Positions 13,777 to 14,400 of a stretch of 21,304 bases of DNA are shown here, piece after piece. Source of the stretch: a virus (taxonomy: Duplodnaviria; Heunggongvirae; Uroviricota; Caudoviricetes); IMG/VR virus record IMGVR_UViG_2681813224_000001; one strand, written 5' to 3'. The number at the start of each line of letters is the position of its first letter. Position 1 is the stretch's first letter. The position numbers and the translations under genes were made by a program. The notes under the pieces are model-generated. The model was not told the DNA's origin. It was given only the letters and a program-made list of their open reading frames with translations, and searched no databases.

Positions 13777-14400
13777 ATGTCATCAATCCGCTTAACTACG
13801 AGAATGAAAGAGGAAATCGCTCGTAACGCTTTAATTAAGTCCGGGGTGTTCACTGAACTTGAAGAAGTAACAAAGTTAAAGAACCAGCTTGCACTTGACG
13901 CCAGAGTTATTGCGTTTGGCGGTAAAAAGAAAACTGAGGAAGTGGATCGGTTATCATCCAAGTTGGTAGCTATAAGTGAAGAACTTGGAAAGATGGGATG
14001 TTCATTTTACTCATACGATGTTAGTTCTACTTCAATTTATCTGACTGTATCTGGCAGAAGGGTTGGATGGCATTCATATGGGAAAGACGGCAACGGCAAA
14101 GATATATTGCTCCCTACTCCGATCAAAGATAAATGCATGTTTGACGCAGAACACGAAATAACAAAAAGGTTTGATGAAATCTGCGCATTGCAACAAAAAC
14201 TTGAAGCCAAGAAAAAGGATATCGAATCAAATGTATGGGCTGCTTTGAACTCAGTCACAACAGTTAAGCGACTTATTGAAGTTTGGCCTGAAAGCAAAGA
14301 ATTGCTACCAAAAGAAGCAGATAAAGCAAGTACAGCACTTCCTGCTTTACGGGTAGAAGATTTGAATAAGATGATTGGACTTCCTTCCGAGGCCGCATAG
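13777..14400 (+). CDS. Hypothetical protein in the N-cIII interval
   Basis: 207 aa from the ATG at 13777 with gagagga RBS (MSSIRLTTRMKEEIARNALIKSG...); the track's upstream extension lacks an RBS. No family recognised. Confidence 0.6.
   Translation: MSSIRLTTRMKEEIARNALIKSGVFTELEEVTKLKNQLALDARVIAFGGKKKTEEVDRLSSKLVAISEELGKMGCSFYSYDVSSTSIYLTVSGRRVGWHSYGKDGNGKDILLPTPIKDKCMFDAEHEITKRFDEICALQQKLEAKKKDIESNVWAALNSVTTVKRLIEVWPESKELLPKEADKASTALPALRVEDLNKMIGLPSEAA

Follow-up and report, generated by a model that had tools for sequence, protein, structure and literature searches.

A full-length Nmad5-family gene in a low-GC cassette between N and cIII of a Shiga toxin 1 phage

The window analyzed here is the whole 21,304-nucleotide stretch of DNA of IMG/VR virus record IMGVR_UViG_2681813224_000001 (Caudoviricetes), from a phage that carries the Shiga toxin 1 (Stx1) genes. 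Our subject is the gene at positions 13777 to 14400, which encodes a 207-residue protein of the Nmad5 family. The gene, its signals, and the block of its product that is most conserved in the family are located as follows.

13777-14400, plus strand: Nmad5-family coding sequence, ATG at 13777, TAG at 14398-14400, 207 codons (open reading frame and translation, Pfam, PHROG, and RefSeq name)
13764-13769, plus strand: Shine-Dalgarno-like GAGAGG, 7 nucleotides before the ATG (read from the sequence)
14389-14418, plus strand: terminator-like hairpin and U-rich tract (consensus scan and fold)
14254-14385, plus strand: codons 160 to 203, the most conserved block of the family (alignments and AlphaFold models)

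The open reading frame (ORF) is a real gene under selection and not a chance ORF, because it has a full-length Pfam match, homologues of the same length that reach down to ∼30% identity, and a median ratio of nonsynonymous to synonymous substitution rates (dN/dS) of 0.36 across 57 close alleles. An earlier note on this DNA had placed the 207-amino-acid frame at exactly these coordinates and had credited it with its own ribosome-binding site, and a Shine-Dalgarno-like GAGAGG does lie 7 nucleotides upstream of the ATG. It had also described the product as soluble and Lys/Glu-rich, and the composition agrees: lysine makes up 11.1% and glutamate 9.7% of residues, the isoelectric point (pI) is 8.3 (family median, 7.7), and there is no transmembrane or hydrophobic segment, the maximum Kyte-Doolittle value over 19 residues being 0.61. 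The terminator that the note assigned to the gene holds in part. A G+C-rich hairpin of 7 bp does lie over the stop codon at 14389 to 14408, with the stop codon in its loop, CAUAGU, and UUUAUUUUU following (consensus scan). It folds at −11 kcal/mol with a z score against shuffled sequences of just −1.4, and for that reason we grade it as terminator-like and not as a proven terminator.

To the earlier note the gene was unknown and its product had no recognizable motif; neither description survived the family searches. By its sequence the protein is, essentially certainly, a single-domain Nmad5 protein of full length (PF18757, "nucleotide modification associated domain 5"). It scored 239.7 bits where the curated gathering cutoff is 27 (E = 4.3e-71), and its residues 4 to 203 covered positions 1 to 206 of the 206-position profile and thus the whole of it. 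PHROG 1965, whose category is "unknown function," was likewise matched end to end (E = 5.9e-83; residues 3 to 207 on profile positions 2 to 208 of 208). A Pfam scan at E ≤ 1 gave Nmad5, the only match below E = 0.05, and four weak coiled-coil-type matches (E > 0.06); the protein had zero matches in NCBIfam and matched zero families among the PADLOC-DB defense profiles at E ≤ 1. The earlier note had named a clear relationship to a structural or housekeeping protein of phages as contrary to its proposal, and none emerged from these searches. The signature residues of the family (W170, P171, E172, L176, P178, L196, N197, G201, and P203) are all present; in an alignment of 65 sequences whose mean column identity is 33%, each is either invariant or conserved to 90% or more. 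The architecture is that of a stand-alone Nmad5 protein: 207 residues, Nmad5 as the only significant domain, and a phage or prophage origin.

The family is large. An exhaustive profile search returned 2331 cluster representatives (50% identity) at E ≤ 1e-3, and lengths were mostly 190 to 220 amino acids among the best 150 of them. Among the matches listed, PF18757 was the sole Pfam domain in the homologues, and no domain fusions hinting at function were found there. The gene itself is present in 211 of 5426 complete Escherichia coli genomes at 94 to 100% identity, with 228 of the 229 copies lying on the chromosome, in prophages. RefSeq gives identical and near-identical copies the product name "Nmad5 family putative nucleotide modification protein," and identical proteins of Stx phages are annotated as Nmad5 family as well, so the gene is a known one and does not represent a novel type of element. 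The "NMAD" domain of validated DefensePredictor systems is Nmad2 (PF18753), not Nmad5, and is irrelevant here.

An AlphaFold2 model made with the 65-sequence alignment had a mean predicted local distance difference test (pLDDT) score of 90.4 and a predicted template modeling (pTM) score of 0.80, compared with a pLDDT of 86 for an earlier AlphaFold model made with 30 sequences. It confidently predicts a helical bundle with a small beta element. Long helices are predicted at residues 8 to 22, 24 to 47, 50 to 72, and 127 to 158, and the beta element at 86 to 100 together with short strands. The C-terminal part is modeled as two short helices (163 to 169 and 171 to 176), a flexible linker at 184 to 190, which holds the only residues with a pLDDT under 50, and a terminal helix at 193 to 200. 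No solved structure resembles the model, nor does any viral predicted structure of known function, and a profile search of Protein Data Bank sequences returned just designed coiled coils at E > 0.1. Conservation is concentrated in the block from 160 to 203, at T162, L166, W170-P171-E172, L176, P178, P189, L196, N197, G201, and P203; the other conserved positions are R5, I14, and A18 near the N terminus, R43, G48-G49, and G93. These residues are overwhelmingly structural or hydrophobic, and the 65-sequence alignment contains no constellation of residues that looks catalytic. With a pI of 8.3, the protein is unlikely to be an acidic DNA mimic like Ocr or ArdA. The C-terminal N-x-x-I-G-L-P is loosely like hexapeptide beta-clamp-binding motifs, a likeness to which we give no weight.

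The gene lies within a mosaic cassette, and in one related phage it is split by an insertion sequence (IS) element.

13767-14439, no strand assigned: mosaic cassette (blastn breakpoints and drop in GC content)
13880-13883: site in the window that corresponds to the insertion of an IS3-family element in phage record LC616041 (locus L179, positions 1696-3004; orfA of 108 and orfB of 296 amino acids)

When the window was compared by blastn with the 933W-like Stx2a phage Stx2a_F723, homology ended at 13766 and restarted at 14440. In the slot after N, Stx2a_F723 encodes a 156-residue hypothetical protein instead (locus L176, positions 2184 to 2654), which is not related to Nmad5; as a diverged Nmad5 analogue this slot protein of 933W-like phages was rejected, with an hhalign probability of 0.2%. 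The P22-like phage APC_JM3.2, by contrast, shares only 13757 to 14430 in this neighborhood, at 97.5% identity (blastn), and the shared segment consists of the ribosome-binding site, the gene, and the hairpin, at the equivalent early-left position among other neighbors. The GC content of the cassette is 38 to 41%, against 49 to 51% for N and 50 to 55% for gam, bet, and exo. In all 48 Stx2a-phage records of the collection, the match was limited to residues 34 to 207 and fell at two places per record. In LC616041, the one Stx2a phage examined, the Nmad5 gene is interrupted past roughly codon 35 by a 1309-bp IS3-family element. The window bases 13880 to 13883 flank the element on each side, the pattern expected of a 4-bp target duplication. 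In O121 genomes this IS sequence carries the annotation "IS3 family transposase." The replacement in Stx2a_F723, the segment shared with a P22-like phage, the low GC, and the interruption by an IS element support the view of the earlier note that the N-cIII interval is an accessory hotspot, and they show the Nmad5 gene to be dispensable for a prophage. The cassette of ∼670 bp is a self-contained, low-GC, horizontally exchanged unit of ribosome-binding site, gene, and terminator-like hairpin.

Two landmarks fix the position of the cassette in the phage genome.

13332-13715, plus strand: N antiterminator gene, directly before the cassette (ORF list; related phages with the identical segment annotate it so)
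14779-14837: cIII RNA thermometer, RF01804 (Rfam, 88.5 bits)

The N-cIII position read by the earlier note is therefore right, with N upstream and the thermometer downstream. After the Nmad5 gene come an ea10-like gene, the cIII thermoregulator, kil, gam, bet, and exo, and the other arm of the window holds stx1A/B, Q, NinG, a Dam methyltransferase, NinB, P, and O. A set of Stx1a-converting phages matches the window over the Nmad5 region with 100% identity. The N-cIII slot is a known home of exclusion genes in lambda and P22, and the note had called it the ral/sieB slot of lambda. As a statement about an accessory position that is sound, since Ral and SieB are encoded in the same interval of the lambda pL operon, but a link to either protein finds no support: no sequence or family relationship was detected (the Pfam scan at E ≤ 1 gave no significant family but Nmad5, and PADLOC-DB gave none), and the protein has no membrane segment and its gene no promoter-like site of its own.

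The same region suggests how the gene may be expressed. A promoter-like site at 13055 to 13083, in the pL region, was the only plus-strand match within 12600 to 15200. The consensus scan found no promoter-like site directly upstream of the Nmad5 gene and no terminator-like site in the 61 nucleotides from the N stop (13715) to the ATG at 13777; going downstream from the pL region, the first terminator-like hairpin is that which overlaps the Nmad5 stop codon. On the simplest reading of these signals, the gene would be cotranscribed with N from pL, immediate early and independent of antitermination, and it would be silent in a repressed prophage. Such a pattern counts against an exclusion function of the sieB type, expressed from the lysogen.

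Several other features of the window were noted in passing. Between the cassette and the ea10-like gene, a 9-bp inverted repeat at 14446 to 14473, GTGTATTCA...TGAATACAC, encloses a 10-nucleotide loop and lacks a U tract, and a second, stronger terminator-like hairpin at 14533 to 14554, TTGCCCTC...GAGGGCGA, is followed by TTTTTT. Both repeats are within sequence common to 933W-like phages, where homology has resumed at 14440. A run of 7 N at 14608 to 14614 stands for ∼230 to 237 bp that are present in identical public phages, as judged from a record span of 2331 bp against 2101 query bases; the missing part corresponds to positions 2832 to 3068 of the Stx2a_F723 locus. Since the N run replaces that sequence, the 48-residue ORF at 14573 to 14719 is an artifact. 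The true ea10-like gene starts at 14581 (MSNIKKYII...), encodes 122 amino acids, and is annotated "single-stranded DNA-binding protein." Early-left accessory genes encode a DksA/TraR-type zinc-finger protein (17642 to 17863), an Ead/Ea22-like protein (17860 to 18267), a 265-residue protein without a Pfam match (18227 to 19024), and a fusion of dATP/dGTP pyrophosphohydrolase with DUF551 (19035 to 19817).

On the minus strand lie the Stx1 genes, with the A subunit at 720 to 1676 (RIP domain) and the B subunit at 441 to 710, and, in the nin region, a gene for a Dam-family N6-adenine methyltransferase at 5382 to 5909 (PF05869, E = 6e-65). No DNA-modifying enzyme besides Dam was found among the window ORFs scanned against Pfam. 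Downstream of cI and on the same strand are a DUF3024 protein gene (10756 to 11097), a 153-residue ORF without a Pfam match (11165 to 11626), a gene for a 348-residue Stk-like eukaryotic-type protein kinase (11620 to 12666; Pkinase, E = 2e-46), and a 54-residue ORF. A bidirectional terminator-like hairpin at 12832 to 12853 ends this cI-side group, which spans 10756 to 12833 and looks like a lysogen-expressed immunity and exclusion operon.

What surrounds Nmad5 genes elsewhere was surveyed at 176 loci, which reduced to 43 Nmad5 clusters at 80% identity. ORF calling was crude, and a single pattern search, WPE[ASV]x[ED]L[LI]P, supplied most of the loci; a profile search of genome contigs with a closer alignment gave 4 loci only. 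The most frequent neighbors were a family A DNA polymerase, a DUF2800 PD-(D/E)XK nuclease, and an Enc34-type single-stranded DNA-binding protein, each found within five genes in 8 to 10 of the 43 clusters. Within three genes, counting one locus per cluster, the figures were 8, 8, and 6, respectively. ThyX, DUF6378, a VapE-type primase, ParB-helix-turn-helix (ParB-HTH) proteins, HNH, dUTPase, and an AAA_24 (Sak4-like) ATPase were rarer neighbors, and in temperate phages an immunity repressor was also among the less frequent ones. A DNA methyltransferase (Dam) was near Nmad5 in only 1 of the 43 clusters, and most of the surveyed loci had no recognizable modification enzyme within three genes.

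Individual genomes show the same setting. The N4-like Shigella phage B2 has the order polA-DUF6378-ThyX-Nmad5...AAA-SSB (SSB, single-stranded DNA-binding protein), Vibrio phage Athena1 has its Nmad5 gene directly before the replication gene O, metagenomic phages have Nmad5 beside an SNF2 helicase, an Rv2179c-like exonuclease, or polA, and in lambdoid and P22-like phages the gene is upstream of recombination modules. The exception is found in the Dhillonviruses, where a lone Nmad5 gene sits on the opposite strand inside the head module. The shared setting is thus an early replication, recombination, and nucleotide-metabolism region and not one of base modification; in this phage, too, the neighbors are N, the ea10-like gene, cIII, kil, gam, bet, and exo. 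DUF6378 (PF19905) was found one or two genes upstream of Nmad5 in unrelated phages (locus L003, which is gp17 of Shigella phage B2, and locus L008), with ThyX or dUTPase, and the grouping of DUF6378, Nmad5, and ThyX or dUTPase may be a conserved small module.

Three groups of relatives allow closer comparison. The N4-like proteins (gp19 of Shigella phage B2 and its counterpart in Salmonella phage FSL SP-058) have the same size and align end to end, at 32% identity over 98% of the length. Their phages, however, are virulent podoviruses in which Nmad5 is part of a fixed replication module, between ThyX and a helicase/primase-AAA-SSB block. The Nmad5 proteins of M6/YuA-like Pseudomonas, Sphaerotilus, and Bordetella phages belong to the same family, are also single-domain proteins of ∼190 to 210 amino acids from an early DNA-metabolism region, and show 30 to 45% identity in the C-terminal block (residues 121 to 207 of the window protein), whereas the N-terminal half cannot be aligned with the window protein by BLAST. 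These genes sit in a cluster for thymidine hypermodification and hmU synthase, and the window phage is without such genes. In the Dhillonvirus proteins (SM_S22 CDS6 and BF9 QXL91292), the C-terminal 100 residues are homologous, at 32 to 33% identity, and, as in the window phage, the gene is nonessential. They differ in length (254 to 334 residues), in an unrelated N-terminal part, and in the location of the gene, on the opposite strand in a head-gene module.

The Dhillonvirus relatives are the ones for which genetics is available. Mutants that escape the Tmn defense carry a Lys-to-Glu substitution in nmad5, K296E in SM_S22 and K216E in SM_A8; reverting the mutation brought Tmn sensitivity back, and introducing it alone gave resistance (PMC11846954). 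Deletion of nmad5 gave no Tmn resistance, and cloning of the wild-type gene did not succeed, apparently owing to its toxicity (PMC11846954). The escape mutant thus behaves as a gain or change of function and not as a loss. BLASTP against SM_S22 CDS6 aligned K295 with K164 and K296 with R165 of the window protein, inside the conserved T-x-K-[KR]-L..WPE.

14269-14271, plus strand: codon R165, which aligns with SM_S22 K296 (K296E escapes Tmn; BLASTP against SM_S22 CDS6)

Tmn is activated by direct recognition of RIIB of phage T2, an early replisome-linked protein (PMC13001434). T4/T2 RIIB parallels Dhillonvirus nmad5 in that mutations in it escape Tmn, but loss of RIIB function is enough for escape and deletion of nmad5 is not. 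A fold or sequence shared by Nmad5 and T4 RIIB was tried and rejected, with an hhalign probability of 1.4%. Together, the Dhillonvirus and RIIB results indicate that the C-terminal subdomain of Nmad5 is a surface relevant to an interaction, either directly with a host immune sensor or at a step upstream of one. The description of nmad5 as "a DNA modification enzyme" in PMC11846954 derives from the family name only. As to SM_S22 CDS6 itself (locus L178, positions 5005 to 6009), its 334-residue ORF and the beginning of the scaffolding gene, which is on the opposite strand, overlap by ∼200 bp, and related Dhillonviruses annotate Nmad5 as 254 residues. The N-terminal 80 residues of the SM_S22 protein may be an annotation artifact, which would explain the remark on a "truncated N-terminus" in PMC11846954.

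The interpretation that we favor, at somewhat short of even confidence, is that the Nmad5 protein is a dispensable, noncatalytic, immediate-early helical adaptor that acts at the replication/recombination machinery of the phage or the DNA-metabolism machinery of the host through protein contacts of its C terminus. On infection or induction, pL would transcribe the gene together with N. The product would be a helical adaptor and not an enzyme, and it would bind its partner through a contact surface that is probably formed by the invariant C-terminal block T-x-K-[KR]-L..WPE..L.P...LPA..DLN..IGLP. Host immunity may then see, or be affected by, that C-terminal surface, as the Tmn escape of Dhillonviruses suggests. 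The name "nucleotide modification protein" probably reflects the neighborhood in M6/YuA-like phages and not a function in a lambdoid phage.

Several points weigh against this interpretation. We infer the expression timing, its immediate-early character coming from consensus scans alone, as well as the lack of catalysis and both the existence and the nature of a partner. R5, R43, and E172 could form a catalytic site. The argument from neighborhoods is one of guilt by association, replication genes being common in the early regions of phages, and SN1/M6/YuA-like and Bordetella phages hold Nmad5 between aGPT-Pplase1 and hmU synthase. The Dhillonvirus protein, finally, shares the C-terminal half only, so its genetics may not transfer.

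The strongest rival, which we consider rather unlikely, makes the protein a ral equivalent: an immediate-early inhibitor of a host nuclease, a restriction system, or another immunity system that protects the phage DNA. The first position after N, ahead of any terminator-like site, would allow the earliest possible synthesis. The gene is sporadic and dispensable and belongs to a low-GC, mobile cassette whose slot is demonstrably variable, and the lone opposite-strand gene in the Dhillonvirus head module resembles a moron. That a substitution and not a deletion abolishes Tmn defense would suit an altered inhibitor with a new target, and the cloned Dhillonvirus gene appears to be toxic (PMC11846954). 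However, the protein has no similarity to a known anti-defense protein, with Nmad5 as the only significant Pfam family and no structural relative of known function, its pI and that of the family do not fit an Ocr/ArdA-type mimic, and the phage already encodes gam. Moreover, phages of the virulent N4-like and polA types keep Nmad5 as a stable part of their core replication modules, a placement less typical of anti-defense genes, with their fast turnover. The adaptor and counterdefense interpretations share most of their evidence and differ mainly over whether host immunity is the target; they would overlap if what the protein does is to shield replicating DNA.

The family name itself suggests another role, as a DNA-binding or targeting partner of a base-modifying enzyme, here the Dam-family methyltransferase or an enzyme of the host. 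Iyer et al. in 2013 reportedly named the family from gene neighborhoods with base-modification enzymes; the M6/YuA-like arrangement fits that origin, ThyX adjoins Nmad5 in N4-like phages, ParB-HTH proteins recur nearby, and the window does have a Dam gene. That gene, however, is 8 kb away in the pR operon, and Dam is the only such enzyme among the window ORFs scanned. Across the family most loci have no modification enzyme near Nmad5, no catalytic signature was seen, and the M6 modification pathway was reconstituted in vitro from gp51 to gp54, with no need for Nmad5 (PMC8989533). We regard this role as improbable. An equivalent of sieB, expressed from the prophage for superinfection exclusion or defense, is more improbable still. 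It could claim the slot that sieB has in lambda and an immunity region that includes the exclusion kinase Stk, but the lack of an upstream promoter-like site in the consensus scan, of a PADLOC match, and of a membrane segment all speak against it, and Nmad5 proteins abound in phages that are strictly virulent (N4-like, Dhillonvirus, and M6-like), for which protecting a lysogen makes no sense.

Extending the adaptor interpretation to the family gives a broader proposal, which we offer as doubtful. Nmad5 would be misnamed: a widespread early factor (>2,300 clusters at 50% identity) would dock on conserved replication/recombination machinery, or on a conserved host target, through its invariant C-terminal peptide, and it would be among the phage proteins that the Tmn membrane NTPase reads. 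In lambdoid phages it would form a swappable immediate-early cassette, and its gain or loss would tune sensitivity to host immunity.

Nmad5 is among the more abundant phage early proteins without a demonstrated function, and the interest of this gene is in the family and not in the locus. Its name leads annotators, as it has led one experimental paper or more, to the unsupported label "DNA modification enzyme." The lambdoid cassette of ∼670 bp is a convenient genetic system both for the function of the family and for the question of Tmn escape, and natural comparisons exist in the 933W-like phages that have another gene in the slot and in the Stx2a phages in which the gene is split by an IS element. 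An early gene of Stx phages that alters replication or survival under host immunity could affect the spread of toxin phages.
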